64,000 nucleotides of DNA, from assembly GCA_965225625.1 (NCBI GenBank), contig CBDDBH010000026.1:3561-67560 (forward strand), given 5' to 3'. The translations under genes were made by a program, and so were the position numbers. Numbering within the stretch: position 1 is the stretch's first letter; every line of letters begins with the position of its first letter. The notes beneath the pieces are model-generated. The model made no database searches. It saw nothing but the letters and a program-made list of their open reading frames with translations, and was not told where the DNA came from. Of this stretch, positions 21,443-37,348 are shown piece after piece. This DNA is from Gammaproteobacteria bacterium. Its GTDB lineage: Bacteria > Pseudomonadota > Gammaproteobacteria > JADZEE01.

Positions 21443-22107
21443 GGCTGCAAACGTGTCACCGTCCATTCGCCACCCGCATAACCGTCGCCGGTTTCGGTTA
21501 GCGTTCGCGTCCACAATCCGCGGTCGTGAGCACGTCCCTCCGCGCCAACCCATAGTTCGATACGCTCACAATAGATCCGATAGCCTCCCCAGTTCGGCGG
21601 GCGCGGCACCGGTAGCTCGGATGCGTCTCCAAACCTATCCTCGCACTGCGCGAGCCTGTCGAGCAACGCACTGCGCGAACCAATGGCGGCACTTTGATCG
21701 CTCGCCCAGGCAGCGATTTGGGCCGGGCGCGGGCGCTTGGAAAAATACGCATCCGATTCCGTTTCCGGAGAGACGACCACCGGACCCTCAATGCGTACCT
21801 GGCGCTGCATCGAATCCCAGTGAAATACGGCTGCCGCATAAGGCTGCTGTGTTAGTTCGCGTCCTTTGCGACTTTGCCAGTTGGTGTAAAAAACTATATA
21901 GCCGGGCTCGGCCGCAAACCCGCGGCACAGCACCATACGCGCCGAAGGACGACCAGTAGCGTCCACTGTAGCAACACTCATGGCAAGTGGGTTTCTGCGA
22001 TCTGCGCGTTGTTCCGCTTCGGTGAACCAACGACCCAGAATGGCGAACGGCTCAGTCGGTAAAGGATCTGCGAGAGAAGGATCGGAAGGGATGTCTTGAT
22101 AAAGCAT
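21439..22107 (-). CDS. pdxH: Pyridoxine/pyridoxamine 5'-phosphate oxidase
   Basis: PSARMVL, FYTNWQSRKG, RQVRIEG, PRPPNWGGY, RAHDR, RLQP. Confidence 0.95.
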   Translation of the reverse strand: MLYQDIPSDPSLADPLPTEPFAILGRWFTEAEQRADRRNPLAMSVATVDATGRPSARMVLCRGFAAEPGYIVFYTNWQSRKGRELTQQPYAAAVFHWDSMQRQVRIEGPVVVSPETESDAYFSKRPRPAQIAAWASDQSAAIGSRSALLDRLAQCEDRFGDASELPVPRPPNWGGYRIYCERIELWVGAEGRAHDRGLWTRTLTETGDGYAGGEWTVTRLQP

Positions 22108-22186
22108 GATCTAGGGTTGGCGTTCAGCGGCGCCCTGCGATTTACTCAGTAGTCTGCGTAGCAGGCGTCGCGGGGTGAGCGGCTGC

Positions 22187-22834
22187 TCAGCCGGCTAACG
22201 CATCGGCCAGCTTAAACTCGGCTTCGGTTCGCGTGCGGATCTCGGTAACGCCGACATCCGGCGCTAATTCTACAAGAGTCAAACCAGTTTGATTAATCTC
22301 GAACACACCGAGATCGGTGATAAGGACGTCGACAACGTTGACGCCCGTCAACGGCAATGTACATTCCCTCAGCAACTTCGCCGAGCCGTCTTTAGCATTG
22401 TGATCCATCAGCACGACGACGCGTTTTACGCCTGCAACCAGATCCATAGCGCCGCCCATACCCTTGACCATTTTGCCGGGGATCATCCAGTTCGCGAGGT
22501 CGCCGTTTTGCGAAACTTGCATGGCGCCGAGTATCGACAGATCCATATGTCCGCCACGGATCATCGCGAAACTATCGGCACTGGAAAAATAACTGGTTTG
22601 CGCTAATTCTGTGATCGTTTGTTTACCCGCGTTAATGAGATCCGGATCGACCTCCTCTTCCAGTGGAAAAGGGCCCATACCCAACATGCCATTTTCGCTT
22701 TGTAAGGTAACGTGCATACCCTCGGGTATGTAGTTTGAAACCAAGGTCGGAATACCGATGCCCAGATTTACATAAAACCCGTCCTGCAACTCCAACGCCG
22801 CGCGTTGTGCGGTTTCCTGTCTCGTCCACGGCAT
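22187..22834 (-). CDS. scoB: 3-oxoacid CoA-transferase subunit B
   Basis: VNLGIGIPT, catalytic [13 protein letters not shown]; ATG 22834. Confidence 0.95.
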
Positions 22835-22848
22835 CGTTCGCTCCCCGC

Positions 22849-23550
22849 TCACGCGCTCTCGCGAACCGTGCGCTGTTCGATACGTTTTTCGAAATGTTCA
22901 CCCTTTATTATCCGGTTGACGTGGATCCCCGGGGTATGGATGTGGTCAGGATCGAGTTCGCCGATATCGACGACACCCTCAACTTCGGCGATGGTTACTT
23001 TGCCGGCAACCGCCATCATCGGATTGAAGTTGCGTGCCGTCTTGCGATAGATGAGATTCCCCTCCCGGTCCGCGCGCCAGGCTTTGACGATCGAAAGATC
23101 AGCCGTAAGGCCCGTTTCCAAAACATATGTTTCACCGTCAAATTCTTTATGTTCTTTGCCTTCCGCAATTAGCGTGCCCACACCGGTCTTGGTGTAAAAA
23201 CCAGGAATTCCCGCCCCGCCGGCGCGGATACGCTCCGCCAGCGTTCCTTGTGGATTGAATTCGAGTTCCAACTCGCCGGCAAGATACTGCTGCTCAAATG
23301 TCTTGTTCTCGCCGACGTAGGAGGAAAGCATTTTTTTAACTTGGCGTGTTTGCAACAGGATCCCGAGCCCAAAGTCATCGATGCCCGCGTTGTTGCTGAT
23401 TACGGTCAGATCTTTGGCACCCGAATCGTGGATCGCACGGATCAGGTGCTCGGGGATCCCGCATAAGCCGAAGCCACCGGCCATGATGGTTATGCCGTCG
23501 GCAATCACTCCGTCGAGAGCCGCGTTAGCGTTCGCGAATTCTTTGTTCAT
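22849..23550 (-). CDS. scoA: 3-oxoacid CoA-transferase subunit A
   Basis: [38 protein letters not shown]. Confidence 0.95.
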
Positions 23551-23587
23551 TGTTTACAGTCCTGGGGTATCTCGCTCTACATTACCG

Positions 23588-24622
23588 CTAATGCTGCAAC
23601 GCTTCGCCTGCCGGACCCTCTCCTGGCATTATCTCGATGGGCTCGTCGCTGCCTGGCTCGAAACATCGCAACCACTCGTCTAAGCCTGCGCGTTGCGTGT
23701 TCAGATACGCGGCCTGGCGTAGCGCGATTCGAGTAGCATTGCGATGCCATTTACTGGGTCCCGCGACAAACGCAGCCGGATCGTCACCCGCGAGAAGTGC
23801 GGCATTCGTGCGCGCCTTTGCCGTTACGAAGTCCTGGTGACCGTGTTCGTTCAGCAGTTCTTGAAATTCATCAAACGCCGCCTGGTCAAACGGCTTGCCT
23901 CGACCGAGCTTATCGTAGGTTGGATGGTCTGGATAAAGCGTCAGACAGGGAACCAGCCCTTCGGGGATGGGACTGGTTGCGGCGTGGGTGCGCTTGCTCT
24001 TCAATAATTTGGGCAATACATGGGTATGCGGTCCCAGCGGAGTCTGACCCGATCCGTCAGCCGCCGGTATCGGTTGATATACCTCGACCCGTCCCATACG
24101 TGAAAGTGCGACCCGATTTGGCGAGGAGGCGACGATGTTGGCCATTGCTGAATTATGTGGGTCAAACAATGAGCGGCCTTGCTCAGCTCTGAGTGTCTTA
24201 ATCAATTCTGGCTCCGCGGTGCGGATGCAAAATTGTAGATAAGCCGTACCCATACCCATGTCGAATAGCAAATCCCCGTCGGCGCCATCGCGTAGCGCCT
24301 GTGTATCGGGTCCAAGTTCTGTCAGCGTGTCGCGTGCGGGCATGGCGGCGTCTGCCTCGAGAAGACAAAACGCGACGCTTTGCGACCAATCATGAGTACA
24401 CGTTGCCAGGGTCTCAAATGCGATTGGCTTAGCCGCCGCGGAATCGGCAATTGCGATGGCACCGCGCTCGGTGACAATTGCGGACTTTGCAGAAGCGTCG
24501 TGAAACTGCAACGGCTCGTCGGCGTCGTAAACGAACTCGGCTATCGCGCCGAAAATGCCAATGCTCCAACCACTGCTGGCACGCCGCAAGTGCTGCTCGA
24601 TCATCCGCTTGCCGGAATTCAT
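23588..24622 (-). CDS. Uncharacterised protein, translationally coupled to the nitrile hydratase genes
   Basis: 344 aa; WSIGIFGAIAEF and GPHTHVLPKLL blocks; 4-bp ATGA overlap with the accessory gene. Confidence 0.75.
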   Translation of the reverse strand: MNSGKRMIEQHLRRASSGWSIGIFGAIAEFVYDADEPLQFHDASAKSAIVTERGAIAIADSAAAKPIAFETLATCTHDWSQSVAFCLLEADAAMPARDTLTELGPDTQALRDGADGDLLFDMGMGTAYLQFCIRTAEPELIKTLRAEQGRSLFDPHNSAMANIVASSPNRVALSRMGRVEVYQPIPAADGSGQTPLGPHTHVLPKLLKSKRTHAATSPIPEGLVPCLTLYPDHPTYDKLGRGKPFDQAAFDEFQELLNEHGHQDFVTAKARTNAALLAGDDPAAFVAGPSKWHRNATRIALRQAAYLNTQRAGLDEWLRCFEPGSDEPIEIMPGEGPAGEALQH

Positions 24623-24996
24623 CGTTGTGCCTCCGTCGCGCGTTTTTGTAATTCTATCGGTTCACCATGCGGTGTCGCGGCTGCCGCCTCGGCCCAGGCC
24701 GCCTTCCGGTCCAACAACTCCTCAGCAACTACCAGACCTTTGGCGGACACCAGTTTCTCCAACGCACGCAGCCAATGCTGGTAATAGGTGTCTCCGAGAT
24801 CTGGATCGCCCGCCGCCTGGGCCGCTTTGATTTCAACGCCCAGTTGATCCGCCCATTCACTCCAGTCGAAATGGCCCTGTTCGACCAGACTTACCACCAT
24901 GCCGAATGCCTGTGCCTGCCACGGTTCTCGAAAGATCGGTCCGTCTTCGTCTTTACGCAACAGCGGCAAATCAGGTATTTCAGTCACGTTGGTCAA
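24619..24996 (-). CDS. Nitrile hydratase accessory/activator protein (P14K-like)
   Basis: PIFREPWQAQAFG, YYQHWLRALE, ATPHGEPIEL; follows nthB. Confidence 0.92.
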   Translation of the reverse strand: MTNVTEIPDLPLLRKDEDGPIFREPWQAQAFGMVVSLVEQGHFDWSEWADQLGVEIKAAQAAGDPDLGDTYYQHWLRALEKLVSAKGLVVAEELLDRKAAWAEAAAATPHGEPIELQKRATEAQR

Positions 24997-25649
24997 ACCG
25001 GATCGAGGTAGTCATCGAAAAGATCGAAATATATCGCCTCGCCATCATTGCCCTGCTCACCCCAAAGCTCCTTGGAGCTGAAGCGCGCCGCATAACAATG
25101 CTGGAGATGCTCGCCCTGGCCATGTGCGGCCGTATCAGGCAAATAGTAGACCCCATGATCACGGGCGATAGTACCCAGCTTGCCGCGCACATAGGCTGCG
25201 ACACGAGTATGCGTCGGCGGATTCAAATTACGCACCAACACTTCATCGCCAACGGCGAAATGTGCCCCAACCTCCACTTCCTGCGGGGGCGGCACCATCT
25301 TCAGGATGGCGGGAACCATCTCCGGAGGAATTGCCTGCACCGGTTCGGCAAGCGGCACGGCTGCAGTGCTGCCATCCAGTTCGCCGGCGGTTACCAAGCC
25401 CCGCTCCTGCAGCAAGGTGGTAAATCCGACCAGCCATTTCTCGTAGTAGCTCAAACTTAGGTAACTAGCCGGGGCCATGCGTTCGATGGAATGGCGAACC
25501 TGATCGACGATGAAAAAACCCAATCCTAGGGTGAGATTCATCATGCCAAAAATCCGACCCTCCCATGGCGCATGAAAAATCGGTTCGTTTTCTTCCGGAA
25601 CCACCGGACCGTAGCAATGCATACCACCCATATCGTGAACACCATTCAT
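24993..25649 (-). CDS. nthB: Nitrile hydratase beta subunit
   Basis: MNGVHDMGG, FHAPWE, RHSIERM, SYYEKW, HTR..YVRGKLG. Confidence 0.96.
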   Translation of the reverse strand: MNGVHDMGGMHCYGPVVPEENEPIFHAPWEGRIFGMMNLTLGLGFFIVDQVRHSIERMAPASYLSLSYYEKWLVGFTTLLQERGLVTAGELDGSTAAVPLAEPVQAIPPEMVPAILKMVPPPQEVEVGAHFAVGDEVLVRNLNPPTHTRVAAYVRGKLGTIARDHGVYYLPDTAAHGQGEHLQHCYAARFSSKELWGEQGNDGEAIYFDLFDDYLDPV

Positions 25650-25663
25650 CGTGTCAACCTCAT

Positions 25664-26263
25664 TTAGGTTACTGCGTCGACCTGACGCGTGCCGACCATG
25701 GCATCGCGGGATACCAGCTCGGCGAGTTGTTCCTCAGCGAAATTTTCGGTCCCGGCCGGCCGTTGCGGGATCACCAGATAACGTACTTCGGCGCTGCTGT
25801 CCCAAATACGGATCTCGACATCGTCAGCCAACTCGGTGCCGAAGTCTCGTAAAACACCGCGCGGTTCGCGTACCGCGCGCGCTCGATACGGCGCGGATTT
25901 GTACCAGGTAGGCGGCAATCCCAACAGCGCCCACGGATAGCAGGAACACAGCGTGCATACGATGAGGTTGTGGACTTGTGGGGTATTTTCGACCGCCACA
26001 ACGTGGCCCGCTTCCATGCCCGCCAGGCCCAACTCCGCGACGGCCGCGGATCCATCCTCTAGCAGCCGCTTTTTATAGTCCGCGTCGACCCAGGCCCGAG
26101 CGACAATTTTCGCGCCGTTATGCGGACCCACTTGGGTTTCATAAGCATCGACGAGCGCATCGACCGTGGCCGGATTGATGATGCCTTTTTCGCTCAACAG
26201 AGATTCCAGCGCTTTGACGCGCAATACAACATCGGGCAACGGTGCATCGTGATCATGTGCCAT
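25664..26263 (-). CDS. nthA: Cobalt-type nitrile hydratase alpha subunit
   Basis: [10 protein letters not shown] (Thr/Tyr = Co-type); ATG 26263 after GGAGG. Confidence 0.97.
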
Positions 26264-26416
26264 GGATTCATCCTCCGTTCCGGTATTGTCGCGCCCGCAC
26301 AATCGCAGGGCAACTAGCCAGCTAAGTTGCTTGCGTCCGTTGGACTCCAGGCCGACCCTCCCACTATAACTTTCCTGCTGTAAGATGAGGCGCTGCAACC
26401 GTGGAGGAATTGCAAG

Positions 26417-26866
26417 TTGGATATTACCGGCGAATATAAAATTGCGGCGCCACCGGAGCGCGTCTGGGAAGCCCTCAACGACCCGGACGTCCTGCGCCAG
26501 GCCATCCCGGGCTGTGAGGCGATGACCGCACTGTCCGACACTGAAATTGAAGCAGTCATCGTTAACAAAATCGGTCCAGTGAAAGCCAAGTTCAAAACAG
26601 TGCTGAGCATTACAAATCTGAACCCGCCCAATAGCTACACCTTGAGTGGGGAGGGCAAAGGCGGTTTGGCTGGCTTTGGACGCGGCAGCGCCAACGTTAC
26701 GTTATCGCAAGACGGTAGCAACACGGTTTTGAGCTATACCGCTGATTTTGCGGTCGGCGGCAAGCTCGCGCAAATTGGCTCACGCCTGATCGTGGCGGCA
26801 ACACGCAAAATCGCCGACGATTTCTTTGCACGCTTCTCCGAGCTACTTAACGCCCAGGCTACTTAG
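26417..26866 (+). CDS. coxG: CoxG-like SRPBCC protein
   Basis: [36 protein letters not shown]. Confidence 0.88.
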
Positions 26867-27374
26867 CCGGATTAACATGCCCGCAAGATGGGCATGTGCG
26901 TTTCTGCTCGTCGCCAACGTACTCGGCGGTCGCATCATTGATAAACCCGACCAGATTGCCGTGTATTTCCCCTTCGACGCCGCGCACGAGTTCATCGCAT
27001 TGCTGGCAATACCATTGCAATTGATCAGCCTGTCCAGCCCCGCGGTAGCGTTCGATGACCAGTCCTTTCGTTCCCGCCGGCCGCTGCGGGGAATGCGGGA
27101 CATTTGGCGGCAACAAGAACACCTCGCCGGCGCGTATCGGCAGATCTCGGGAGCGGCCGTCTTCACGGATTTTTAGGGTGATGTCGCCCTCGATCTGATA
27201 AAAAAATTCCTCCGTCGGGTTGACGTGCCAATCAGTGCGATCGTTACCGCCGAGCATCACCACGATGAAGTCGCCAGTGTCCGTCCAGACCGGTTTACCG
27301 CCGACAGGGGGTTGCAGAGATTCGGCATTGTCGGCAATGAATTTTTGGATATTGATTGGGGTGGGAACGCTCAT
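26859..27374 (-). CDS. nbaC: 3-hydroxyanthranilate 3,4-dioxygenase
   Basis: LQPPVG, RTDWHVNPTEEFFYQ, VPHSPQR, rubredoxin-like CQQC and CPSC; ATG 27374. Confidence 0.92.
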   Translation of the reverse strand: MSVPTPINIQKFIADNAESLQPPVGGKPVWTDTGDFIVVMLGGNDRTDWHVNPTEEFFYQIEGDITLKIREDGRSRDLPIRAGEVFLLPPNVPHSPQRPAGTKGLVIERYRGAGQADQLQWYCQQCDELVRGVEGEIHGNLVGFINDATAEYVGDEQKRTCPSCGHVNPAK

Positions 27375-27405
27375 GGGGCACACCTGCGGTGAATTGGATC
27401 CTGTT

Positions 27406-27804
27406 TCAATCGGCCAATGCGATCGCTTCGACTTCAATATCGAAATTAGCCGGCCAAGAGCCTACTGCGACAAAGGTTCGAGCCGGCGGGGCCTCAGGAA
27501 AGTACTCCCGATAAACCTTGTTAATAGAGTTGAAATGACCCGCGTTCGCAGCATACACGTTCACCTTGAGTATCTGCTCTAGCGAGGAGCCAGCCGCCTC
27601 TACGGCCGCTTTGATGTTCTCCATGCAGTGCCGTGTCTGAGTGACGATGTCGGCATCTACCAGCAGTTCGCCGGTGTCTTTGTCGATCGGCGGCGTACCC
27701 GAAACAAACACCAGACCGCCACCCTTGACGGCTGCTGATAGCGGAACATCCAAGCGCTCCAGAGCTTCCGTGATTTTTCCGACCCGGACAATTTCTTTCG
27801 GCAT
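27406..27804 (-). CDS. RidA/YjgF family imine deaminase (2-aminomuconate deaminase candidate)
   Basis: FVSG, NKVYREYF, PPART (conserved Arg), IEVEAIA; ATG 27804 after GGAGG. Confidence 0.88.
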   Translation of the reverse strand: MPKEIVRVGKITEALERLDVPLSAAVKGGGLVFVSGTPPIDKDTGELLVDADIVTQTRHCMENIKAAVEAAGSSLEQILKVNVYAANAGHFNSINKVYREYFPEAPPARTFVAVGSWPANFDIEVEAIALAD

Positions 27805-27890
27805 CGACAGCCTCCGCGTTAACGTCGGTTCATCCAGTGCACATATTGCACCAACGCGACGCACCCACGCCAGAGGTATTACCAGCGAAC

Positions 27891-27916
27891 AAAAAAAGGG
27901 GCGCTAGGCCCCTTTT
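27891..27916 (-). terminator. Rho-independent terminator (possibly bidirectional)
   Basis: AAAAGGGGC-GCTAG-GCCCCTTTT hairpin; A7 run gives the U-tract on the minus strand; lies just after ORF 27937..28200. Confidence 0.85.
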
Positions 27917-27936
27917 CTTGCTTCCGGCGATTAGTC

Positions 27937-28200
27937 TCAATCGCCGTCAGTAATCGGCGCCGTAATAATCTGTGCGGCACCTTCGATCACTTGCCCGGCG
28001 GCCTTTACCGCACCCTCAACCGGACCGGTAATGATGCCGATAGCACCTTGCTCTTCAATGTTATCAGCCGTTTCCGTTATCACTTTGGCCGGCGCCGTTA
28101 TCATCTTGCCCGCGCCTTCCGGTACATCTTCAGCGTCTGCGAATACTGGCTGTATCGCGAACAACCCTGCAAATAAGAACGTGACTAATAGCTTTTTCAC
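27937..28200 (-). CDS. Small exported hypothetical protein
   Basis: GTG 28200 after GGAGAG; signal peptide KKLLVTFLFAGLFAIQPVFA; followed by a terminator. Confidence 0.75.
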   Translation of the reverse strand: MKKLLVTFLFAGLFAIQPVFADAEDVPEGAGKMITAPAKVITETADNIEEQGAIGIITGPVEGAVKAAGQVIEGAAQIITAPITDGD

Positions 28201-28315
28201 CGATTTCTCTCCTTCTCTCAAATACTGGTTCACAATCACCATTCTACCTAGCTACGGATTCCGTTGCGAATCCGTGAGTTAGCACTCAATTAAGGGTACA
28301 GCTTGACCGCCACTA

Positions 28316-28333
28316 CCTGAACGTCGCCTGAAC
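28316..28333 (-). promoter_or_regulatory. Direct-repeat binding site for an OmpR/PhoP-family regulator
   Basis: GTTCAGG-N4-GTTCAGG on the minus strand (11-bp period) upstream of the small exported gene. Confidence 0.55.
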
Positions 28334-28402
28334 CGAAACCCCCGACCTCAACCGCGTACCGCGCGACTAATACTACAGGTCCAAACGCCGCGCGTGAACA
28401 CA

Positions 28403-28729
28403 TCAATTCCCGCTGTTGGCATGCAGATATATTACGAGTTCATCAAGCTGGCTGTCAGATATCTCTACCGGTCGAAAGGATGGCATCTCTTTGAAGCCGA
28501 GTCGTACCACGGTCTTAATGTATGCGGGCTGTAGGTCCGTGCGGCCCTGCAACAGGGCTTTATCTTCACCTCGCACCAGCGCCAACTTCTGGGTTCCCGG
28601 ATTACCACGGCCGGCATCGTGACAATGGATGCACCATTTCGCGAACACCCGCTCGCCCTCGGATCCGGCCCAAACGCCGCTGCTGGTTAGGAATAAGCTG
28701 ATCACGGCTACCGCTTGCCACAGTTTCAT
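28403..28729 (-). CDS. Monohaem cytochrome c subunit (PchC-like)
   Basis: Signal peptide, CIHCH, GNPGT, VRLGFKEMPSF (axial Met); ATGA overlap with the flavoprotein gene. Confidence 0.9.
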   Translation of the reverse strand: MKLWQAVAVISLFLTSSGVWAGSEGERVFAKWCIHCHDAGRGNPGTQKLALVRGEDKALLQGRTDLQPAYIKTVVRLGFKEMPSFRPVEISDSQLDELVIYLHANSGN

Positions 28730-30297
28730 AAATTTTTGCCCCGCAAATGCTTTGGCCAAATCCCTGATTTCCCAGCCGCCAGTATGCCATTGGGATCCAA
28801 CGCGTCCTTAATCCGCTCGTTCAGGCGCAGCAGCGAGCTGTTGTTGTAATTGTAGGTCTTTGCGATCTTATCCATGAACGCCAGATGCGTTCGATATTCC
28901 CCATATCCTTCCGCGGCCGCCTCATCGATGAGAAGAGTGACCAATTCGTGCGCGCGCTTCGTTTCTTCTGTGTTTTGCGGGTTGAATACCGTCACCGCGA
29001 TGTGGTGCAGTTCGCGCCAACCAACGATCATCGCGCCGAAATAATCAAACCCGTATTCGTGCGTGCGGTCGCGGATCATCGCGTATTGCTTGAGTGCTTC
29101 AGAGCCGGTTGTCGGCGACACGGGCGAAAAGTCGACATGGGCGCCGCCGTCGATCCAGTTCATGTAAGCGAACTCACTCATGCTCGGCACACCGGACATC
29201 GACTGGGCGCGGTATTCCATGGTTATGTCACCTGGCCGATCTTCCTTGGAATAGAATTTCGCGCCGGGGATCGCCGAGAATGCATCGTGGATCACTTCCC
29301 ACTGCGCATCCATGATCGCATCAGGCCCATACAAAGCGGCATAGAAATTCCACATACCGATGCGTTGATCCGCCATGAGTTTGCGCGCCGCACTGTCTGG
29401 CAGCGGGCCCTTACCTGAGTAGTATTGCTTTTTGGTCGCCTTAACTGCGCCTTCGAACAACAGGCTGATCATCACCGCCGCATTCGGGATCACCATGTTG
29501 ATCTTGAGCGGTCTTATCGCCTCGACCAACGGCTCCAGATCCTCCTCACGCTGGAATGTGACCATGAACGGCCGGTAACCAGGCGGTTCCGGCATCAGCC
29601 AAATGCCCAGTTTGGTTACAACGCCGAAATTCGATTGCGTAAATATACCGTCGTGATACGGGCCGAATCCGTATTTGAACAACTGCCAGGTGTTGTTGTT
29701 GGGCAATGCTCCCATGCCAGTGCGAACGACGTCGCCGTCGGCGAGCACGACCTCCATGCCACACTGCATTTGAAAATGATCGCCATAGGGCGTGTAACCG
29801 ACGCCGCGATCGACCGCGTTGCCCAAAACGCTACCCCACCCGGGCGCTGGCACATCCAGCCACAACTTGATATTGCGTTCCTGCAGGTATTGATACAGGT
29901 CGAAATAACTGACGCCGGGCTCGACCAGGGCGTAACCGAATTTCTCGTTGACTTCGAGTATGCGGTTCATGCGCTTCAGATCCAGCACAACGCTGCCCGG
30001 CAAGCGCGGGGCCGCGCCGCCGTAGCCATGATTCTTGCCGCCTGAAATCGGCCACAGTGGAATACCGTGTTCGTTCGCAATTTTCACCACCGCCTGAACC
30101 TGCTCGACGTTCTCTGGAGCGACGGCCGCCGACGCGACGAAATGGTCCATATCAACAATGGCATAAGGGTCGCGATAGCTCGCCAGACCTGGGCCCTGTT
30201 CGCGGAATACCCACTGCTTGCCGACGACCTCGGCAAACGCGTCGAGTGACGTATCGAGCGTCTTGTCGGACACGCCAGGCGGTAAGGTTCTATTCAT
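28726..30297 (-). CDS. VAO/PCMH-family 4-alkylphenol oxidoreductase flavoprotein
   Basis: GKNHGYGG, EPGVSYFDL, RGVGYTPYGDH, QSNFGVVTK, GEYRTHL, DPNGILAAGKSG. Confidence 0.93.
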   Translation of the reverse strand: MNRTLPPGVSDKTLDTSLDAFAEVVGKQWVFREQGPGLASYRDPYAIVDMDHFVASAAVAPENVEQVQAVVKIANEHGIPLWPISGGKNHGYGGAAPRLPGSVVLDLKRMNRILEVNEKFGYALVEPGVSYFDLYQYLQERNIKLWLDVPAPGWGSVLGNAVDRGVGYTPYGDHFQMQCGMEVVLADGDVVRTGMGALPNNNTWQLFKYGFGPYHDGIFTQSNFGVVTKLGIWLMPEPPGYRPFMVTFQREEDLEPLVEAIRPLKINMVIPNAAVMISLLFEGAVKATKKQYYSGKGPLPDSAARKLMADQRIGMWNFYAALYGPDAIMDAQWEVIHDAFSAIPGAKFYSKEDRPGDITMEYRAQSMSGVPSMSEFAYMNWIDGGAHVDFSPVSPTTGSEALKQYAMIRDRTHEYGFDYFGAMIVGWRELHHIAVTVFNPQNTEETKRAHELVTLLIDEAAAEGYGEYRTHLAFMDKIAKTYNYNNSSLLRLNERIKDALDPNGILAAGKSGIWPKHLRGKNL

Positions 30298-30476
30298 CGC
30301 AAAATTGTTCTTGTCCCAAATACGCCGCGCTATATTAGTCGGCCTGAACCGGGCGATCGAGCAATTGCGGGCAACCCTCTCGTAAACAACGTTCTGAGCA
30401 TTCCGGCAGTTGTGATCCAGCTCCGCTATTTACGCTATTATTGGAATGGACGTCTCTCGTGGACGAGGTAGTTCAC

Positions 30477-31016
30477 ATGGCAGTCGCCAGCGACGAAATC
30501 ACAAAGAAAGTCTCCACATACTGTTATCAGTGCGTGAACGGGCCGGACATACTCAACGTCGAGGTCGTCAACGGCGTTGCGACAAAAATCGAGCGCAATT
30601 ACGACGTCAAAGCCGAGGACTATCCATTCTGGGTTCTGACCGCGCGCAGCATGCAGTACGCATGGGGCGGCAACGTCTCCTTGCAGGTAATCAAAGAACT
30701 TGCAGACAACGTCGCCGGGCATGATGGCATAATGATTAATGCCAAACGCGCACAGGACTTGGGCATCGCCGAGGGCGACATGCTCGAAGCACGCTCTGCT
30801 GTCGGAGCGACCCAAGGCAAGGCTATACTGCGCCAGGGAGTACATCCGGAAGTGTTAATAATGCTGGCCCAGTTCGGACACTGGAAAACACCGATGGCCA
30901 AAGAAATGAAGCGCCCCAGTTTAAATAAAATAGTGCCTATGGCTATGGATTTCATCGACGGCAGCGGCTCCAGTGTCGATGCGGCGAAAGTCCAGATCCG
31001 GCGCGTGGAGGCTTAA
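30477..31016 (+). pseudogene. Internally deleted DMSO-reductase-family molybdoenzyme large subunit (PadB-like); reading frame intact
   Basis: N-terminal TYCYQCVNGPD...VATKIERN joined directly to the C-terminal dinucleotide-binding domain (YPFWVLTARSMQY...QFGHW); only 179 aa. Confidence 0.8.
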
Positions 31017-31019
31017 ATA

Positions 31020-31706
31020 ATGACCCGCTATGTGATGACTGCAGATTTGAATCGTTGTGTCGGATGTCAAACCTGCACGGCTGCCTGTCGGCACACCAAC
31101 GCCACACCACCAGGTGTGCAGTGGCGCAAAGTTTTAGACGTGGAAATGGGTGAATACCCGAATGTGGAGCGGGTGTTCATGCCGGTCGGCTGTCAGCACT
31201 GCGCCGATCCGCCGTGCATGCACGTCTGCCCGAGCACCGCGACGGGTCAACGCGACGACGGCATCGTCACGATTGATTACGACGTGTGCATTGGCTGCTC
31301 TTACTGTTCCGTAGCGTGTCCCTACCAGGCGCGTTACAAGGTCGATGCCGGCGAATTGGAGTTCGCCTACGGCGACGAGCCAATGGCATCGGAATCAGAG
31401 CGCTTAGATACGCGTACTCTCGGCGTGGCACAGAAATGCACGTTCTGCTCCGACCGCATTGATTCTGGTTTGGAAAAGGGCCTTACGCCGGGTGTCGATC
31501 CGGAGGCAACACCGGCATGTGTGAACTCCTGCATTGCCGATGCGCTGCAATTCGGTGATATAGAAGATCCTGACAGCAACGTGTCGGAATTGCTGGCCGA
31601 AAACTCCTGGTTCCAGATGCACGCCGAACTTGGCACCGATCCTGGCTTCTACTATTTGTGGGACGAAGAGAAAGCCAAGAAAGTGCGTAATGCGATGGGG
31701 GACTAA
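31020..31706 (+). CDS. 4Fe-4S dicluster electron-transfer subunit (DmsB/NrfC/PadC-like)
   Basis: CVGCQTCTAAC, CQHCADPPCMHVCP, CIGCSYCSVACP, KCTFC...PACVNSC. Confidence 0.93.
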   Translation: MTRYVMTADLNRCVGCQTCTAACRHTNATPPGVQWRKVLDVEMGEYPNVERVFMPVGCQHCADPPCMHVCPSTATGQRDDGIVTIDYDVCIGCSYCSVACPYQARYKVDAGELEFAYGDEPMASESERLDTRTLGVAQKCTFCSDRIDSGLEKGLTPGVDPEATPACVNSCIADALQFGDIEDPDSNVSELLAENSWFQMHAELGTDPGFYYLWDEEKAKKVRNAMGD

Positions 31707-32464
31707 AAAATCCCGCTCAACCCACCGGCGTCGAGCTTTAATACGCCGCCGTGCATGATGTCGGCTTCCGGGTCCAGCAGCATTGTCACCGCCCAGGCGA
31801 TCCCCTGCGGCGTTGGTAAGCGGCCCAGTGAATTTCGATTGATATATTCCTGCCATACCTCGTCAAACGGCAGCCCGCGTTCTTCCGCAACCTGAGTGGC
31901 GATACGTCGCAGACGCGGCGTATCCGCGGGCCCGGAACAGATGGTGTGGGTCGTAACCCCCTGCGGCCCATAAAGCATGCTGATCTGTCGCATAAGATTA
32001 AACAGTCCGGCATTAATGGCACCGGGACCTGCCTCATGCGCTGTGGGTTCAACCCCGTGCGAGCCCGCAAACACAACGAAGCGTGCGTGTTCCTGCTGAA
32101 AACTTTCTTTAACGGCCCGCAGCAAGCGTACAACACCGCCCAATTTAATATTGCTGCCGAGGGCAAGAATGTCGGGATCCATCGTTTCGACTGAGCCACG
32201 TACCGGCAACCCGGCGGCGAATATCGCCATGCGCACTGGAGCGTTAATCTGCATTGCAATTTGATCCATGGCCGCGTTATCCCCAATGTCTGCCACACAG
32301 GTAGTTATCAGTTCGCTGCTGGTCGCCAACTCGGCAAGTTTATCCGCGCTTCGTGCAACCGCGAGGATCGGGATCTCTCGTTCGATTAACTTACCGACCA
32401 CCGCGCTACCCATCGTACCGGTAGCGCCGACAATGACCGCCTGACCTGATTTTTCGCTATTCAT
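31703..32464 (-). CDS. Atypical SDR family oxidoreductase
   Basis: VGATGTMG Rossmann motif, DAGG C-terminus; the usual YxxxK position reads PGAIN. Confidence 0.85.
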   Translation of the reverse strand: MNSEKSGQAVIVGATGTMGSAVVGKLIEREIPILAVARSADKLAELATSSELITTCVADIGDNAAMDQIAMQINAPVRMAIFAAGLPVRGSVETMDPDILALGSNIKLGGVVRLLRAVKESFQQEHARFVVFAGSHGVEPTAHEAGPGAINAGLFNLMRQISMLYGPQGVTTHTICSGPADTPRLRRIATQVAEERGLPFDEVWQEYINRNSLGRLPTPQGIAWAVTMLLDPEADIMHGGVLKLDAGGLSGIF

Positions 32465-32927
32465 TTACCGCTTCCGATTTATTCAATGGGGTCGCGCTGC
32501 AGCTTGGATGTTCCGCTGGATCTGCGCGTGTCAGGCGGTAGGATTTGCCAAACATTGGCAAACCGACATAACCACGTAGTTCGAGTTGGTCGTTATTCAC
32601 CGCATTGAGTCGACCTGAAAAAACATCGCCCTCGTCCGCCCGGTAAATCTTTCCGCCCTTCCATAGATTGGCGTCGCGAGTACTTTGCTCGAATCCCCAC
32701 AGCACTTTCGTATTGCACAGTGGTTCTCCCTCTGGGGTAACCTGTTCTACGTCCGCGCGCAGCCATTCGATATACCCACACAGAGTGTCGCCGCATTGTT
32801 GGATGCGAACGGCGGTATCCTTTTTCTTGGGAAGCCACAGCCCAAGGGGACTCAGTTCAGGATTCTGACTCGCGGCAAACACCGACGCCGCCGTCAGAAC
32901 TGCCACGAGGTAAAGAGTTAAACGCAT
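32457..32927 (-). CDS. DUF2147 family exported protein
   Basis: Signal peptide; PLGLW...VRIQQCGDTLCGYI...WKGGKIY...LELRGYVG. Confidence 0.85.
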   Translation of the reverse strand: MRLTLYLVAVLTAASVFAASQNPELSPLGLWLPKKKDTAVRIQQCGDTLCGYIEWLRADVEQVTPEGEPLCNTKVLWGFEQSTRDANLWKGGKIYRADEGDVFSGRLNAVNNDQLELRGYVGLPMFGKSYRLTRADPAEHPSCSATPLNKSEAVNE

Positions 32928-32971
32928 CTGATTACTGCGGTAGGGGAAGACTCATTTATACCTGCCGAACT

Positions 32972-33850
32972 TTAGTCGGGACCTGTTTCCATTGGCAAAC
33001 TCGGATCCATCGCCCATTCAGACATGGAAGCGTCGTAGACGTTCACTGCACCATGTCCCAGCAGGTCCAATGCGAACGCATCAACGGTCGCCGAAATACC
33101 GCCGCCGCAGTAAGCGATTACCTGCTTGCCGTCCAGGGCTTGCTGCAGTTGCTCACGCAGTCGCGCCGGATCCAGGAAAACTCCGGTCTCCTCATCGAGT
33201 AGCCGCTGATAGCAAATATTGATACTGCCCGGGATCCGTCCGGGCCGCCCATAGTTTGTTTCGGCTTCGCCACGATACATTTGCGGCGGCAAAGCGTTGA
33301 GCCGTACCGTATCGGCATCATCCAAGCTGGCCACCACTCGGGCTTTGTCGACGAAAAACTCCTTATGTAAACTGCCGACAAACTCTGCGGACGAATAAGT
33401 GCACGGAAGCGTACTCACAGGACGGTTCTCGCGTAGCCATTTCTGGAAACCTCCGTCTAGAACCGCAACCCGGTCGAAGCCACAGGCGCGCAACATCCAC
33501 CACACACGAGTCGCCCACATCGGTTGGGTCGTACTATACAAAACGACGCTGCTACCCTCTCCTATTCCGCGCGCAGCGACTGCAGCGACAAATGCATCAA
33601 ATCCGGGCATCATGAAATTCAATGTTTCATGGCTAGCCGATAACTCGTCGATCAAATCCAGAAAACCCGCACCCGGAATATGGCCGGCATGATAGTCGTC
33701 GCGGCCACTGACGAGTCGATAGACCCGCGGCGGATCAGGCTGCAGATGGACAGTACAGTCGAACACGCGCAAATCCGTCGCATCAAGATGATCCTCCAAC
33801 CATCCGGTTTGAACCAGATGCGACGGCATGACGTCCGACAGTTTGTTCAT
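32972..33850 (-). CDS. Tandem-domain rhodanese / sulfurtransferase (SseA-like)
   Basis: GHIPGA, ATRVWWML, LDGGFQKW, active loop YCGGGISA, YDASMSEW. Confidence 0.93.
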   Translation of the reverse strand: MNKLSDVMPSHLVQTGWLEDHLDATDLRVFDCTVHLQPDPPRVYRLVSGRDDYHAGHIPGAGFLDLIDELSASHETLNFMMPGFDAFVAAVAARGIGEGSSVVLYSTTQPMWATRVWWMLRACGFDRVAVLDGGFQKWLRENRPVSTLPCTYSSAEFVGSLHKEFFVDKARVVASLDDADTVRLNALPPQMYRGEAETNYGRPGRIPGSINICYQRLLDEETGVFLDPARLREQLQQALDGKQVIAYCGGGISATVDAFALDLLGHGAVNVYDASMSEWAMDPSLPMETGPD

Positions 33851-34563
33851 CACTGTACTTTTCCGAGCCACTCGTCGATCAATTGGGTTATCTCCTCATG
33901 GCTCATCGGCGGCCCCGTGCTGGCAAACCACAACGGCGCCTTGCGCTCGACGAGACCGGCGATACGCCCCGCGTCTGCTCGCCCGTGCCCATCGCGGCAT
34001 TCCTCCGGCCATGCCGCGAGCGCAGCTAGCGCCGCGCCCAATACCGCGTGCTCTTCGGTTGTTCTGGTCATGCTCGGGGTATTTTGTTCGACCTCTTCAT
34101 GCTTGACCACGGTGGCGATAAATTGCATCAGCTGCTCAAACGGCTCAGGTAACGCGATTTGCGTGAGCCTTGCCCACCGATAGAGATCCTCAGCGCGTAC
34201 CTTCCACAAATCTTCCGGGGCATTACGATTTGTAACCGTCGGTTGTTGTGAGTCACGAACGCTAGCCTGAATCGCTTCCCAGGCAACCGCTTCGCACGAT
34301 CGTATCGGCTCGCGATCGCGCAGTTCGGGCCAGTCCTCAGGGTCAACACCCAATACCAACGGAATGGCATCCTCGCGTAGATACCATTCATCCTGCTTCA
34401 ACCAATGCTCGTAAAGACGTTGCTGTGTGACGATGCCGCTTTGCATGGGTTGTGATTCGGCAAAGATCTCTCCACCCAACTCCGCGCCGACAGATCGGAT
34501 CTGCTTATGCAGTGCGCGCATGGCGTCGCGTATTGGATTTTCGCTTAGTCCCCCAATTGGCAT
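33850..34563 (-). CDS. Hypothetical protein
   Basis: 237-aa ORF in operon geometry (14-bp gap upstream, TGATG overlap downstream). Confidence 0.65.
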   Translation of the reverse strand: MPIGGLSENPIRDAMRALHKQIRSVGAELGGEIFAESQPMQSGIVTQQRLYEHWLKQDEWYLREDAIPLVLGVDPEDWPELRDREPIRSCEAVAWEAIQASVRDSQQPTVTNRNAPEDLWKVRAEDLYRWARLTQIALPEPFEQLMQFIATVVKHEEVEQNTPSMTRTTEEHAVLGAALAALAAWPEECRDGHGRADAGRIAGLVERKAPLWFASTGPPMSHEEITQLIDEWLGKVQ

Positions 34564-34577
34564 AACAGCACCACCCG

Positions 34578-35228
34578 TTAGCGGCTTGTCACCATCGAAT
34601 CCAGTTCCGCGACCGTAGTGACGATCTTCTGATATAGCTCGGCGACCACCACCGGAAGCTGCTTTTCCGCGCGTCTGGATATCATGGTTATTGGAAATAT
34701 GAAGTTTTTATCCTGTCCATATTGCAACGCCCTGCTCGTTCCGTACTCGTCATCGACTATTACCCAGCGCAGATTCAGCCGCTTGGCCATAACATCGCCC
34801 AGGGCCACCCCCAAAGCCTGCAATTCATATGTCTGATCCGGACGCAAGACTTTTTGATCGAGCAGCGATTGCAGGATACGCAAATCATTAAGTGATTCAC
34901 CCGACAAAGGCGAACCCACGTGTCGACGTGCCAACGAACTTGCAACTTCACGCTGCCGTTCGAGGCTCGATTTATCACTGCCCGCAAGCGTAATTACATT
35001 ATCGTTTAAACGAACGCCACTGCCGGCTCCATCCAGCACCCCCGGCACGCTGGCGCCAGGGAAGAGCGGTAAATCCGCGAGCGAGCCGTAGTCGACGTTC
35101 GTGAAATAAGCCCAGGCGACAATGGTCGCAGCCAATCCCAGTACAAGTGTCAGCAGGTAGCGCCACCAAGATTTGCCTTTGCGACGGCGCACCGCGTCTA
35201 AGGAACTGATGTTGTCGGGTTCACCCAT
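34578..35228 (-). CDS. Membrane-anchored DUF3806-like protein
   Basis: One TM; LQALGVALGD...WVIVDDEYG..RAL...IFPITMISRR. Confidence 0.75.
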   Translation of the reverse strand: MGEPDNISSLDAVRRRKGKSWWRYLLTLVLGLAATIVAWAYFTNVDYGSLADLPLFPGASVPGVLDGAGSGVRLNDNVITLAGSDKSSLERQREVASSLARRHVGSPLSGESLNDLRILQSLLDQKVLRPDQTYELQALGVALGDVMAKRLNLRWVIVDDEYGTSRALQYGQDKNFIFPITMISRRAEKQLPVVVAELYQKIVTTVAELDSMVTSR

Positions 35229-35238
35229 GCTACTGCGA

Positions 35239-35673
35239 TCAGCGCGCTAGTGTAGGTAATACATCGGGACGTATCTGGTAACCATCCGCGATTGCATTAG
35301 TGCTGTTGAACAGACCAACGACGGCCATCACCTCTCCTAAACTTTCGTCATCCACACCCAACTTCTGTAACGCGGTCGTGTGCGAGTTGATGCAGTAGGC
35401 GCAGCCATTCGTAGCGGAAACGGACAACGCGATAATCTCGCGGGTAACCGGATCCAGCCTTGCCTTCCGGCCGACCGCTTCGGGGTGCATAAGTGTTTTC
35501 AGACGCGTCCACACCAACTCCAGATGATCGGGATTGGTCGCGAGCACCCGCCAGAAGTTGGGTACAAAATTGATGTTCTTGGTCTGTTTGATGTCGGCGT
35601 AAATTTCCGCAACCTTGCCGGTCGCGGTCTCAGCGTCCACCGGCGGGACGGTGGCATCACGGATGTCGGGCAT
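35239..35673 (-). CDS. Carboxymuconolactone decarboxylase/AhpD family protein
   Basis: REIIALSVSATNGCAYCINSH (CxxC..H). Confidence 0.92.
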   Translation of the reverse strand: MPDIRDATVPPVDAETATGKVAEIYADIKQTKNINFVPNFWRVLATNPDHLELVWTRLKTLMHPEAVGRKARLDPVTREIIALSVSATNGCAYCINSHTTALQKLGVDDESLGEVMAVVGLFNSTNAIADGYQIRPDVLPTLAR

Positions 35674-35752
35674 CGGTAGAACTCCCTTGCTAGGCCTTAA
35701 CTAGTTTACCGCAAAGACATATCGGGATTTGGCACCTGCGGCGGGTACCAAC

Positions 35753-36649
35753 TCAGCCGCGACCCTCCTCTAGATCCTCCAGCGTTTTCGGCCAGTTAGC
35801 CTTGAGTAACCGGGATAAAGCGCGGTCCGCCAGCATTTTTCCGTCGGTCTGGCAGCGCGCGCAATAGTTGCACTCGTTCTGTGCGTAGACGATACGCTGT
35901 ACCGGCGAACCACAGTCAGGGCAGGGCTCACGGTAACGTCCGTGCACTGCCATCCCTTCACGAAAAGCTGTGACTTTTTCCGGGAAACCCTCACCGACCT
36001 CGTCCCGTAAACGCGTTATCCATTCCGATAACGTCGATTGAGTTGCCACGAAGAGGCGAGCCAGTTCCTCTGCGGTCATCTTTTGCGTTTGCTTGAACGG
36101 CGACAATCGGGCTCGATGCAGGATTTCGTCCGAATAGGCATTACCGACGCCGCTGAGGATACGCGGGTCAGTCAACGCCCGCTTCAAGGTGTGGTTATCG
36201 CGCTGCAGTGCCGCGCAGAATTCGCGTTCATTGGCATCGAGCACTTCTAAACCTGCGCGATCGAATTCGCCGAGATTCTCACTTCCCAGAACAAGGTGCA
36301 GCGATGCCCGGCGTTTCTTACTGGCTTCGGTAAATAACACAGAGCCGTTCGGGAAATCGAATGCGACAAGACCGTTGCGCTTCGGTAGCGCCGTTCCGGA
36401 TTTGCGCCAACGCAGGCGGCCGGCAATCATCAAATGCAGAACGCAGAAGTAATCTTCTTCAAGTTGGAATACGATACGTTTGCCCATGCGTCGTACGCCC
36501 TGGACCACACGCCCGATCAGCTGCTCCTTGGCTGGATCGACGCTGCGCAGAACGAATGGACTGACGATGCGCATATCATTCAACGGTTGCCCACTGATGA
36601 GCGCGCCTAGCCGCTCGAGGTATATCGTAATGTCAGGTAGCTCGGGCAT
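35753..36649 (-). CDS. Fpg/Nei family DNA glycosylase
   Basis: N-terminal MPELP, HLMIAG, GVGNAYSDEIL (H2TH), C4 zinc finger CPDC...CARCQ. Confidence 0.93.
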   Translation of the reverse strand: MPELPDITIYLERLGALISGQPLNDMRIVSPFVLRSVDPAKEQLIGRVVQGVRRMGKRIVFQLEEDYFCVLHLMIAGRLRWRKSGTALPKRNGLVAFDFPNGSVLFTEASKKRRASLHLVLGSENLGEFDRAGLEVLDANEREFCAALQRDNHTLKRALTDPRILSGVGNAYSDEILHRARLSPFKQTQKMTAEELARLFVATQSTLSEWITRLRDEVGEGFPEKVTAFREGMAVHGRYREPCPDCGSPVQRIVYAQNECNYCARCQTDGKMLADRALSRLLKANWPKTLEDLEEGRG

Positions 36650-36737
36650 ACGTTAGATTAAAGAACGGTAAGGTTGAGGCGGCAACTTTCGTCCGCCGAC
36701 CCGGTCGTAGCACGTATAAGAACTTGGAGATATTGAA

Positions 36738-37346
36738 ATGTGTTCTAAGTATACGGCGCTGTTAATCGCAGGGGTATTGACCGGGATCATGTCACTCTCG
36801 GCCACCGCGGACACGGAGATCGCTACCTTCGCCGGCGGTTGTTTCTGGTGCATGGAACCACCATTCGACGAACTCGACGGAGTAAAATCGACGACCTCCG
36901 GTTACATCGGCGGCACCAAGCGAAACCCCACATATCAGGAGGTTTCCGCCGGGCGCACCGGTCATACGGAAGCGGTAAAAATTGTTTATGACCCCGTCAA
37001 AATAAGCTATGGCGACCTGCTAAAAGTATTCTGGCGCAATATCGACCCACTGACACCGAACCGGCAATTCTGCGACGGTGGTAGTCAGTACCGCAGCGGT
37101 ATCTTTTACCAAAACTCCGAGCAACAACGGCTGGCGGAAGCATCGCGAACGGCCCTGAGCGACTCCGGCCGATTCAATCAGCCGATTGTGACCGAGGTCA
37201 CCGAAGCATCGAAGTTTTATCCAGCCGAGGATTACCACCAGAATTATTATAAGAAGAACCCGGTCCGATATAAGTTTTATAGATTCAATTGCGGACGGGA
37301 TAAGCGGCTGGCGCAGGTCTGGGGCGAGGACGTGGCTGAGAATTAA
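36738..37346 (+). CDS. msrA: Peptide-methionine (S)-S-oxide reductase with signal peptide
   Basis: FAGGCFWCME, TGHTEAV, AEDYHQNYY. Confidence 0.96.
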   Translation: MCSKYTALLIAGVLTGIMSLSATADTEIATFAGGCFWCMEPPFDELDGVKSTTSGYIGGTKRNPTYQEVSAGRTGHTEAVKIVYDPVKISYGDLLKVFWRNIDPLTPNRQFCDGGSQYRSGIFYQNSEQQRLAEASRTALSDSGRFNQPIVTEVTEASKFYPAEDYHQNYYKKNPVRYKFYRFNCGRDKRLAQVWGEDVAEN

Positions 37347-37348
37347 AC

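Follow-up and report, generated by a model that had tools for sequence, protein, structure and literature searches.

Overlapping genes for a His-bearing 4-phenol oxidoreductase and a PchC-like cytochrome c in a gammaproteobacterial genome probably encode a flavocytochrome-type dehydrogenase

The window analysed here, a 64,000-nucleotide stretch of gammaproteobacterial DNA (assembly GCA_965225625.1, contig CBDDBH010000026.1, positions 3,561 to 67,560), carries on its minus strand a gene for a 4-phenol oxidoreductase flavoprotein of the vanillyl-alcohol oxidase (VAO)/p-cresol methylhydroxylase (PCMH) family, which overlaps a gene for a small cytochrome c. The flavoprotein open reading frame (ORF), P0001, occupies 28729..30297 and encodes 523 amino acids, with its stop codon at 28726-28728, and the cytochrome ORF, P0002, encodes 108 amino acids at 28406-28729, with its ATG at 28729 and its stop codon at 28403-28405. 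The two are joined by an ATGA overlap at 28726..28729, where the TGA of P0001 shares bases with the ATG of P0002. In an alignment of 121 rows, comprising P0001 and its 120 best homologues, the flavoprotein displays the motifs DVPAPGWG (from residue 148), EFAYMNW (375), GGAHVDFSP (384) and DYFGAMIVG (418), and these motifs and the ATGA overlap are those reported in a preliminary description made from the letters of the DNA, with the His codon at 29137-29139 exactly where that description had placed it. The features referred to below are as follows.

28726..30297, minus strand: flavoprotein gene, 523 amino acids plus stop, VAO/PCMH-family 4-phenol oxidoreductase (ORF, Pfam, 8S7P match)
28403..28729, minus strand: cytochrome c gene, 108 amino acids plus stop, PchC-like, with an N-terminal signal peptide read by eye (Pfam, 1DII_C match)
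28726..28729, minus strand: ATGA stop/start overlap, probable translational coupling (sequence; start codon there in 14/16 related loci)
29137..29139, minus strand: His387 codon, predicted 8-alpha-N3-histidyl-FAD attachment (alignment to VAD, EUGO and VAO; PMC7617285 Table 1)
29842..29847, minus strand: Ala151-Pro152 codons, flavin N5-contacting pair (alignment)
29131..29133, minus strand: Asp389 codon, first-shell "H-cluster" position (alignment; PMC5089669, PMC11148156)
29161..29166, minus strand: Tyr378-Met379 codons (alignment to PCMH, EUGO and VAO)
29032..29034, minus strand: Ala422 codon, position of PCMH Glu427, VAO Thr457 and EUGO Gln425 (alignment)
29467..29469, minus strand: Ile277 codon, position of EUGO Arg278 and VAO Arg312 (alignment, tree rows)
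28619..28633, minus strand: CIHCH haem-binding motif of the cytochrome, residues 33-37 (translation, alignment)
28484-28486, minus strand: codon of the axial Met82 of the cytochrome (translation, alignment)

The flavoprotein matches the Pfam families FAD_binding_4 (E 4e-33) and FAD-oxidase_C (E 3.6e-13), where FAD is flavin adenine dinucleotide, and its AlphaFold model has a mean pLDDT of 84.6. Its best PDB matches are seven chains of the VAD structures 8S7N-8S7W at about 1e-226, collinear over residues 4-519 (8S7P, E 1.6e-226), followed by 4-allylsyringol oxidase and eugenol oxidase (EUGO) at about 1e-185, VAO at about 1e-172 and PCMH at 2.8e-150. The cytochrome matches Cytochrome_CBB3 (E 1.4e-14), and its best PDB match is the PCMH cytochrome subunit PchC (1DII_C, E 5.4e-6); its N-terminus, read by eye, resembles a signal peptide over approximately residues 1-21, CIHCH lies at residues 33-37, and Met82-Pro83, which is invariant in an alignment with 14 neighbours of homologous flavoprotein genes, fits an axial ligand. 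Both are full-length genes of known families rather than chance motifs. Gene decay was considered and rejected, the frames being intact and the flavoprotein having a dN of 0.174 with saturated dS against the 75%-identical genes of the closest related locus (L001), for which the cytochrome gives a dN/dS of approximately 0.2.

Alignment to VAD places Ala151 of P0001 at VAD Asp150, Pro152 at VAD Pro151, His387 at VAD His387 and Asp389 at VAD Gly389. The His387 position is occupied by His390 in EUGO and His422 in VAO, and the Ala151-Pro152 pair that contacts the flavin N5 corresponds to Asp170-Leu171 in VAO and Ala154-Pro155 in PCMH, so that P0001 lacks the Asp (or Glu)-Leu pair of the VAO/EUGO oxidases. 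The mapping to PCMH, in 1DII numbering, was made through the representative P0128, which was checked against 1DII; a tblastn search of plasmids with P0001 gave no named P. putida PchF. In this mapping Met379 takes the place of Tyr384, the 8-alpha-O-tyrosyl-FAD residue of the flavocytochromes PCMH and eugenol hydroxylase (EUGH), with Tyr378 standing one residue earlier at PCMH Leu383, while Ala422 replaces the Glu427 acid of PCMH/EUGH and the Asp389 column contains Trp. The EUGO and VAO numbering was obtained by aligning an EUGO-like homologue to EUGO chains, together with the residues given by Nguyen et al. 2016 (PMC5089669): Asp389 corresponds to EUGO Gly392 and VAO Phe424, Ile277 to EUGO Arg278 and VAO Arg312, Glu375 to EUGO Glu378 and VAO Glu410, Ala422 to EUGO Gln425 and VAO Thr457, and Tyr378 to EUGO Leu381 and VAO Trp413, which belong to the substrate pocket. 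The phenolate-binding triad of Tyr92, Tyr468 and Arg469 (EUGO Tyr91, Tyr471 and Arg472) is invariant in 24/24 rows compared. The preliminary description had assigned to P0001 an oxidase-type flavin-linking His, Met in place of Tyr384, Ala at both the Asp170 and the Glu427/Thr457 positions, and a retained Tyr/Tyr-Arg triad, and by the alignments to VAD, PCMH and EUGO this mapping is correct; nor does the Tyr of EFAYM align with the flavin C8-alpha position, a placement that the description had named as fatal to its proposal.

The cytochrome gene is a regular companion of flavoproteins that have a residue other than Leu at the second N5 position. Hidden Markov models (HMMs) built from the cytochrome alignment and from nine ORFs with a twin-arginine (Tat) signal were used to scan 104 related loci, 24 from species genomes and 80 from metagenomes (locus L025, in which the flavoprotein is not in one frame, was omitted from the counts). 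By type of N5 site the loci divide as follows.

VAD type (Asp151 with Pro, Thr or Ala), 47 loci: cytochrome downstream in 42, no room in 5; Tat-signal ORF in 36
Non-acid 151 with Glu422, 42 loci: cytochrome downstream in 33, elsewhere in 1, none in 5, no room in 3; Tat-signal ORF in 36
Non-acid 151 without Glu422, 4 loci: cytochrome downstream in 4; Tat-signal ORF in 3
Asp-Leu (oxidase type), 11 loci: cytochrome in 0; Tat-signal ORF in 0

A PchC-like gene thus lies just downstream in 79 of the 93 non-oxidase loci and elsewhere in one, which amounts to 80 of the 85 that have room for it, compared with 0/11 oxidase loci, and among VAD-type loci with room it is directly downstream in 42/42. The overlap position carries a start codon in 14 of the 16 related loci inspected, ATG in 11 and GTG in 3. 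The Tat-signal ORF, of approximately 150-230 amino acids and without a Pfam family, adjoins the pair in 75/93 non-oxidase loci and 0/11 oxidase loci (for example at L002:5898-6449, L010:3568-4005, L029:929-1501 and L144:5482-6051); the closest locus, L001/L135, is without it, as are window positions 20001-38000.

As the preliminary description had proposed, the complex was modelled, here from one alignment of the flavoprotein and another of the cytochrome in its mature form (residues 22-108), with FAD and haem included. It scored 0.93, a mark reached by 58/80 solved complexes and by 2/110 mismatched pairs, compared with 0.01 for the best of three controls; at least 98% of contacts are common to the runs, and the partner pLDDT is at least 89. 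On the flavoprotein side the modelled interface is formed by residues 372-386, among others, and on the cytochrome side by residues 31-36, 41-48 and 72-89. The model supports binding of P0001 to P0002, which is a weaker thing than showing it, and together with the coupling of the gene across non-oxidase relatives it bears out the earlier suggestion that the cytochrome is a PchC-like partner.

The phylogenetic position of P0001 was taken from a 44-row IQ-TREE analysis (LG+C20 PMSF, rooted on four PCMH/EUGH-like rows), from which eight long rows had been removed beforehand (P0127, P0124, P0134, L020_flav, P0140, P0125, P0132 and P0123); a FastTree analysis of 212 rows gave many long-branch warnings, and the conclusions rest on the 44-row tree. 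The His-linked proteins form a clade with support of 100/99, in which the basal lineages combine Ala-Pro or Ala-Asn at N5 with Glu422, though the deeper branching order hinges on the outgroup root and on moderate supports. It contains a 33-row clade (99/99) in which Ser/Ala151 His-x-Asp lineages, that of P0001 among them, form a polytomy; the four-row clade of P0001 itself (100/100) consists of P0001 and P0003, with Ala-Pro and Ala422, and P0004 and P0005, with Ala-Ala and Leu422. Also within the 33-row clade is a moderately supported group (89/60) in which Asp151 and an Arg at the EUGO-278 position appear together, and which splits into the Asp-Leu oxidases (100/100) and the Asp-Pro VAD-type proteins (99/86). 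The Arg at the EUGO-278/VAO-312 column is found in all Asp151 rows and in no other rows, both in the 24-row comparison and in the 44- and 46-row trees, and this suggests that the ancestor of the VAD-type dehydrogenases and the oxidases gained Asp151 and the Arg together. In the trees P0001 falls outside both the VAD clade and the oxidase clade, in a so far uncharacterised grade, which by its aligned residues is without Asp170 and its partner Arg312 and without Glu427, and which keeps Glu375 and the widespread His-x-Asp. No study of this lineage turned up in the literature searched, supplements not included.

Among solved structures, the best match is VAD of Marinicaulis flavus (His387, Asp150, Pro151; PDB 8S7N-8S7W), the representative of a previously unexplored clade that Guerriere et al. 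2025 (ACS Catal, PMC7617285) describe as combining the oxidase-type flavin-linking His and Asp with the dehydrogenase-type N5 Pro. DCPIP serves VAD as acceptor but neither O2 nor bovine cytochrome c does, and the authors suggested that its electrons go to an endogenous cytochrome c; the main text of that paper makes no mention of a neighbouring cytochrome gene (PMC7617285). VAD belongs to the VAD-type clade of our tree, since row P0069 of that clade scores 1021 bits to 8S7P. It resembles P0001 in its flavin-linking His387 and N5 Pro, and the loci of its type share the downstream cytochrome gene, but it differs in having Asp150, the Arg at the EUGO-278 position and Gly389 where P0001 has Ala151, Ile277 and Asp389, and P0001 falls outside the 99/86 clade that it represents. 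The eugenol oxidases likewise share the His linkage, and AoEUGO also has Asp two residues after the His, but they carry Asp-Leu and Arg278 and have no neighbouring cytochrome (0/11 loci), in contrast to the Ala-Pro, Ile277 and cytochrome of the window. Ala at the Asp site had been noted in His-bearing homologues by Alvigini et al. 2021, in whose study two Ala150 proteins proved insoluble in E. coli and were not taken further (PMC9293466).

PCMH (PchCF of P. putida, 1DII/1WVE) has the same pairing of a flavoprotein with a small cytochrome, and likewise Ala-Pro at N5 (PMC7617285 Table 1). It resembles the window further in having a signal peptide on the cytochrome only, and it differs from P0001 in its Tyr384-linked FAD (Met379 in P0001), its Glu427 (Ala422) and its Trp at the position of Asp389; the PCMH-like representative P0128 is 44% identical to P0001. 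Its gene order, pchC-pchX-pchF, differs from that of the window, where the flavoprotein gene is followed by the cytochrome gene.

A functional parallel is BpfAB of Sphingobium yanoikuyae DN12, described in a preprint (10.1101/2025.09.08.674859). Its flavoprotein gene measures 1569 bp and its cytochrome c gene 426 bp; using PMS as acceptor, the enzyme turns bisphenol F into the carbinol and this into dihydroxybenzophenone, its activity is the same whether or not air is present, and it takes the inserted oxygen from water. The preprint states that BpfA matches a protein of strain SJTF8 with 100% identity, and we identified it by strain, gene lengths and gene order rather than by a sequence from the paper. 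The SJTF8 plasmid pF1 has two divergent copies of exactly such a gene pair, after which come a Tat-signal-like ORF, a gene for a hydrolase and one for a flavin monooxygenase. The translation of the presumed BpfA has SVPAPGWG, His-Met-Asp-Phe-Ser-Pro and DYFGAF, and hence the same Ala-Pro, His-x-Asp and Ala422 signature as P0001, and its cytochrome gene also overlaps the end of the flavoprotein gene by four bases; BpfAB shows that this residue set permits water-dependent hydroxylation with PMS. It differs in having Tyr at the EUGO-278 position, in being 55% identical to P0001, and in joining P0073 on a long separate branch at the base of the 34-row clade that also holds P0001 (SH-aLRT 99) in a quick tree, and it comes with a full bpf catabolic cluster and a third gene whose product has a Tat-like signal, both of them missing from the window. 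A condition that the preliminary description had set for its own refutation, that the protein fall inside an already characterised clade with the same residues, thus holds in part: BpfA does share the signature and the cytochrome, but at 55% identity it occupies another branch of the 34-row clade. As a separate observation, the presumed BpfA (L144:3495-5063 on SJTF8 pF1) has His at the VAO/VAD flavin position, and the published inference of non-covalent FAD in BpfA may need re-examination.

We consider it probable, at roughly 0.78, that the two genes of the window encode a flavocytochrome-type 4-phenol dehydrogenase, and the earlier proposal of a His-linked flavocytochrome dehydrogenase is the reading best supported by the residue mapping, the conservation of the cytochrome beside non-oxidase relatives and a complex model that passes its controls. 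The 523-residue subunit would bind FAD, most likely covalently through His387, and Tyr92, Tyr468 and Arg469 would hold its substrate, a para-substituted phenol, as the phenolate. Hydride would pass from the benzylic carbon to the flavin N5 to yield a quinone methide, which would then be hydrated or rearranged. With Pro152 beside N5, the reduced flavin is expected to react poorly with oxygen and would therefore be re-oxidised by the co-translated PchC-like cytochrome c, which in the model docks at loop 372-386 near the dimethylbenzene edge of the flavin and would then feed the respiratory chain, presumably in the periplasm. The enzyme would probably act on lignin-type 4-hydroxybenzyl alcohols, on 4-alkyl- or 4-allylphenols, or on bis-phenols.

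A number of points weigh against this reading. P0001 carries no signal peptide and P0002 does; the HMM found no Tat-signal ORF in window positions 20001-38000, and the single one in the organism's genome, which is 94.9% complete, lies at C34:498047-498619 beside another paralogue. Scans for promoters and terminators gave matches no commoner than in shuffled sequence, and no aromatic-catabolic genes flank the operon, so that its context gives no clue to the substrate. The score of the complex may reflect likeness to, or memory of, PCMH rather than the pair itself, since PCMH has been solved with its cytochrome (1DII). As for the flavin, van den Heuvel reportedly found in 2000 that Asp170 of VAO supports both covalent flavinylation and a high redox potential (cited in PMC12507022), and Ala151 could therefore mean partial linkage or none. 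BpfAB was found to contain approximately 0.4 FAD per protein, and non-covalent binding was argued (10.1101/2025.09.08.674859).

These last points define an alternative in which FAD is bound non-covalently or only partly covalently for want of the assisting Asp, with a link through Tyr378 as a further possibility. It could draw on Ala151 standing in place of Asp, on the FAD content of BpfAB, which has the same signature, on nsVAO, a family member that works with non-covalent FAD (PMC7617285), and on the insolubility in E. coli of the two His-bearing Ala150 homologues (PMC9293466). However, His387 is present in 120/121 rows, including every non-Asp151 lineage except P0073, and the authors of the BpfAB study, who argued for non-covalent FAD because Tyr384 is absent, sought only the equivalent of that residue and, it seems, made no remark on the His, which BpfA has (10.1101/2025.09.08.674859). 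Tyr378 occurs only in P0001 and P0003 and aligns with the pocket residue Leu381 of EUGO rather than with PCMH Tyr384, and a Tyr378-FAD link was rejected on these grounds. We regard incomplete or absent covalent linkage as unlikely. Still less likely, in our estimation, is that P0001 is an oxidase or uses another acceptor and that the cytochrome is a mere neighbour, as would be the case if a cytoplasmic flavoprotein never met the exported cytochrome. The missing signal peptide and Tat-signal gene would be consistent with this, as would the paralogue L027 of the same genome and the relative L141, neither of which has a cytochrome gene within approximately 1.5 kb, and one substitution at the N5 position is enough to switch oxygen use (PMC7617285). 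Yet the ATGA coupling is conserved, the cytochrome separates non-oxidase from oxidase loci, Pro152 is kept and the modelled interface passes its controls, and PchF of the periplasmic PCMH is also described as having no signal peptide (10.1101/2025.09.08.674859).

The preliminary description had gone further and presented the Asp two residues after the His, Asp389, as a new, relocated acid residue in an enzyme that may differ in stereochemistry or substrate range. Read as a mechanism, this would make Asp389 a relocated catalytic base that replaces Asp170 and Glu427. Asp389 is indeed invariant in a 12-row alignment of the closest relatives, and Asp occurs at this position in 13/19 rows of the 121-row alignment that have no acid at 151 compared with 14/102 rows that have Asp151 (in which residue 152 is Pro in 91, Ala in 6, Leu in 3 and Thr in 2), counts that are phylogenetically confounded. 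Position 392 of EUGO, moreover, is described as remarkably variable and as strongly steering substrate orientation, and AoEUGO, an oxidase with Asp392, has an altered scope, with no chavicol activity and 4-hydroxybenzyl alcohol as its best substrate (Eggerichs et al. 2024, PMC11148156). In a larger set of 212 rows, which adds 50%-cluster representatives and locus translations, His-x-Asp is present in 24/41 His-bearing rows without an acid at 151 but also in 23/144 His-bearing rows with Asp151, and it is seen in basal branches of every His-linked group, including basal oxidases and basal VAD-type rows; because it is found alongside Asp151 and in basal rows, it looks ancestral rather than compensatory. 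A covariation test of positions 151 and 389 had just four phylogenetically independent pairs (median p 0.5) and no power. The equivalent EUGO Gly392 and VAO Phe424 contact the ortho-methoxy substituent, at the end of the ring opposite C-alpha (PMC5089669, PMC11148156). Because the residue is widespread, already present in the characterised AoEUGO and located where it touches the ortho-substituent, Asp389 is neither new nor placed to act at C-alpha, and its role as a relocated base seems improbable to us.

A tentative and rather doubtful extension is that P0001, P0003-P0008 and L001 are survivors of a transitional grade leading from Glu427-bearing His-linked dehydrogenases to the Asp170-Arg312 clade of VAD-type proteins and VAO/EUGO. 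Since its members are without either acid, phenol oxidation would be base-independent or would proceed via Glu375, perhaps including hydration of the quinone methide, and might give other products or another stereochemistry. Such proteins might need the cytochrome, and possibly a Tat-signal escort acting in trans, to fold and become flavinylated, a need that could account for the insolubility of His-bearing Ala150 homologues in E. coli.

Around the pair, the operon neighbours are genes for a small secreted protein, RidA, 3-hydroxyanthranilate dioxygenase, CoxG, nitrile hydratase and an SDR, as well as a short ORF of molybdopterin type that is accompanied by a 4Fe-4S protein. A 101-residue ORF (27940-28242, minus strand), whose start resembles a signal peptide and which has no Pfam family, lies 163 bases downstream of the cytochrome gene. 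The nitrile hydratase cluster at 23591-26398 (minus strand) encodes the alpha subunit, the beta subunit and a small accessory protein resembling beta-N, and next to it comes a DUF6925 protein (E 1.3e-112). On the plus strand, a 191-residue ORF (30441-31013) has only a C-terminal molybdopterin dinucleotide-binding domain (Pfam E 1.4e-9) and no PDB match, and it is followed by an intact 4Fe-4S dicluster protein (31020-31703); this pair (30441-31703), divergent from the flavoprotein gene, looks like the remnant of a molybdoenzyme operon. A clear twin-arginine signal (MMRRRQFL...) marks a 492-residue ORF at 37352-38827 (minus strand) that is without a Pfam family.

The organism's own genome, of 5.5 Mb, encodes three PchC-like cytochromes and three further intact His-linked paralogues, none of which has Asp at the N5 site; their coordinates are C22:128138-129697, C23:117819-119360 and C34:498619-500175, and a frameshifted copy (L030) is found at C20:22630-24181. 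There is also a distant non-His homologue (L031), in which a candidate in-frame TAG was rejected as its normal stop codon. The intact paralogues, with identity to P0001 and residues at the N5 pair, His motif and position 422, are as follows.

L027: 69% identical; Ser-Pro, His-x-Asp, Val; no cytochrome nearby
L028: 61% identical; Ala-Pro, His-x-Gly, Glu; with cytochrome
L029: 61% identical; Ala-Pro, His-x-Asp, Glu; with cytochrome and Tat-signal ORF

The same genome has PobA and 21 VanA_C matches, 20 of them above the Pfam cut-off, and no protocatechuate 3,4-dioxygenase beta subunit above the cut-off. Homologues of the flavoprotein occur in 5/6 other genomes of the same family, with one to five in each, compared with 1/24 genomes of other families in the class. 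This fits a lineage specialised on lignin-type methoxylated phenols, a background that does not in itself identify the substrate of P0001.

The concept is not new, the VAD clade (2025), the Ala variants (2021), Asp392 (2024) and the BpfAB signature (2025) being already in print, and the gain is therefore incremental. What is distinct is a lineage without both classical acids and the Arg partner, with Tyr378 in the pocket, and encoded in a two-gene operon without the usual Tat-signal gene. P0001 has the His-type link and the Pro of the dehydrogenases but neither of the catalytic acids on which the textbook mechanisms of VAO and PCMH are built, and its own cytochrome gene adjoins it; it is thus a natural test case for oxygen reactivity and catalysis in the 4-phenol oxidoreductases. 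It could bear on whether flavinylation, redox tuning and the addition of water really need Asp170 or Glu427, on the physiological electron acceptor, which the VAD study lacked, and on whether such dehydrogenases can convert lignin-derived phenols with no peroxide formed.

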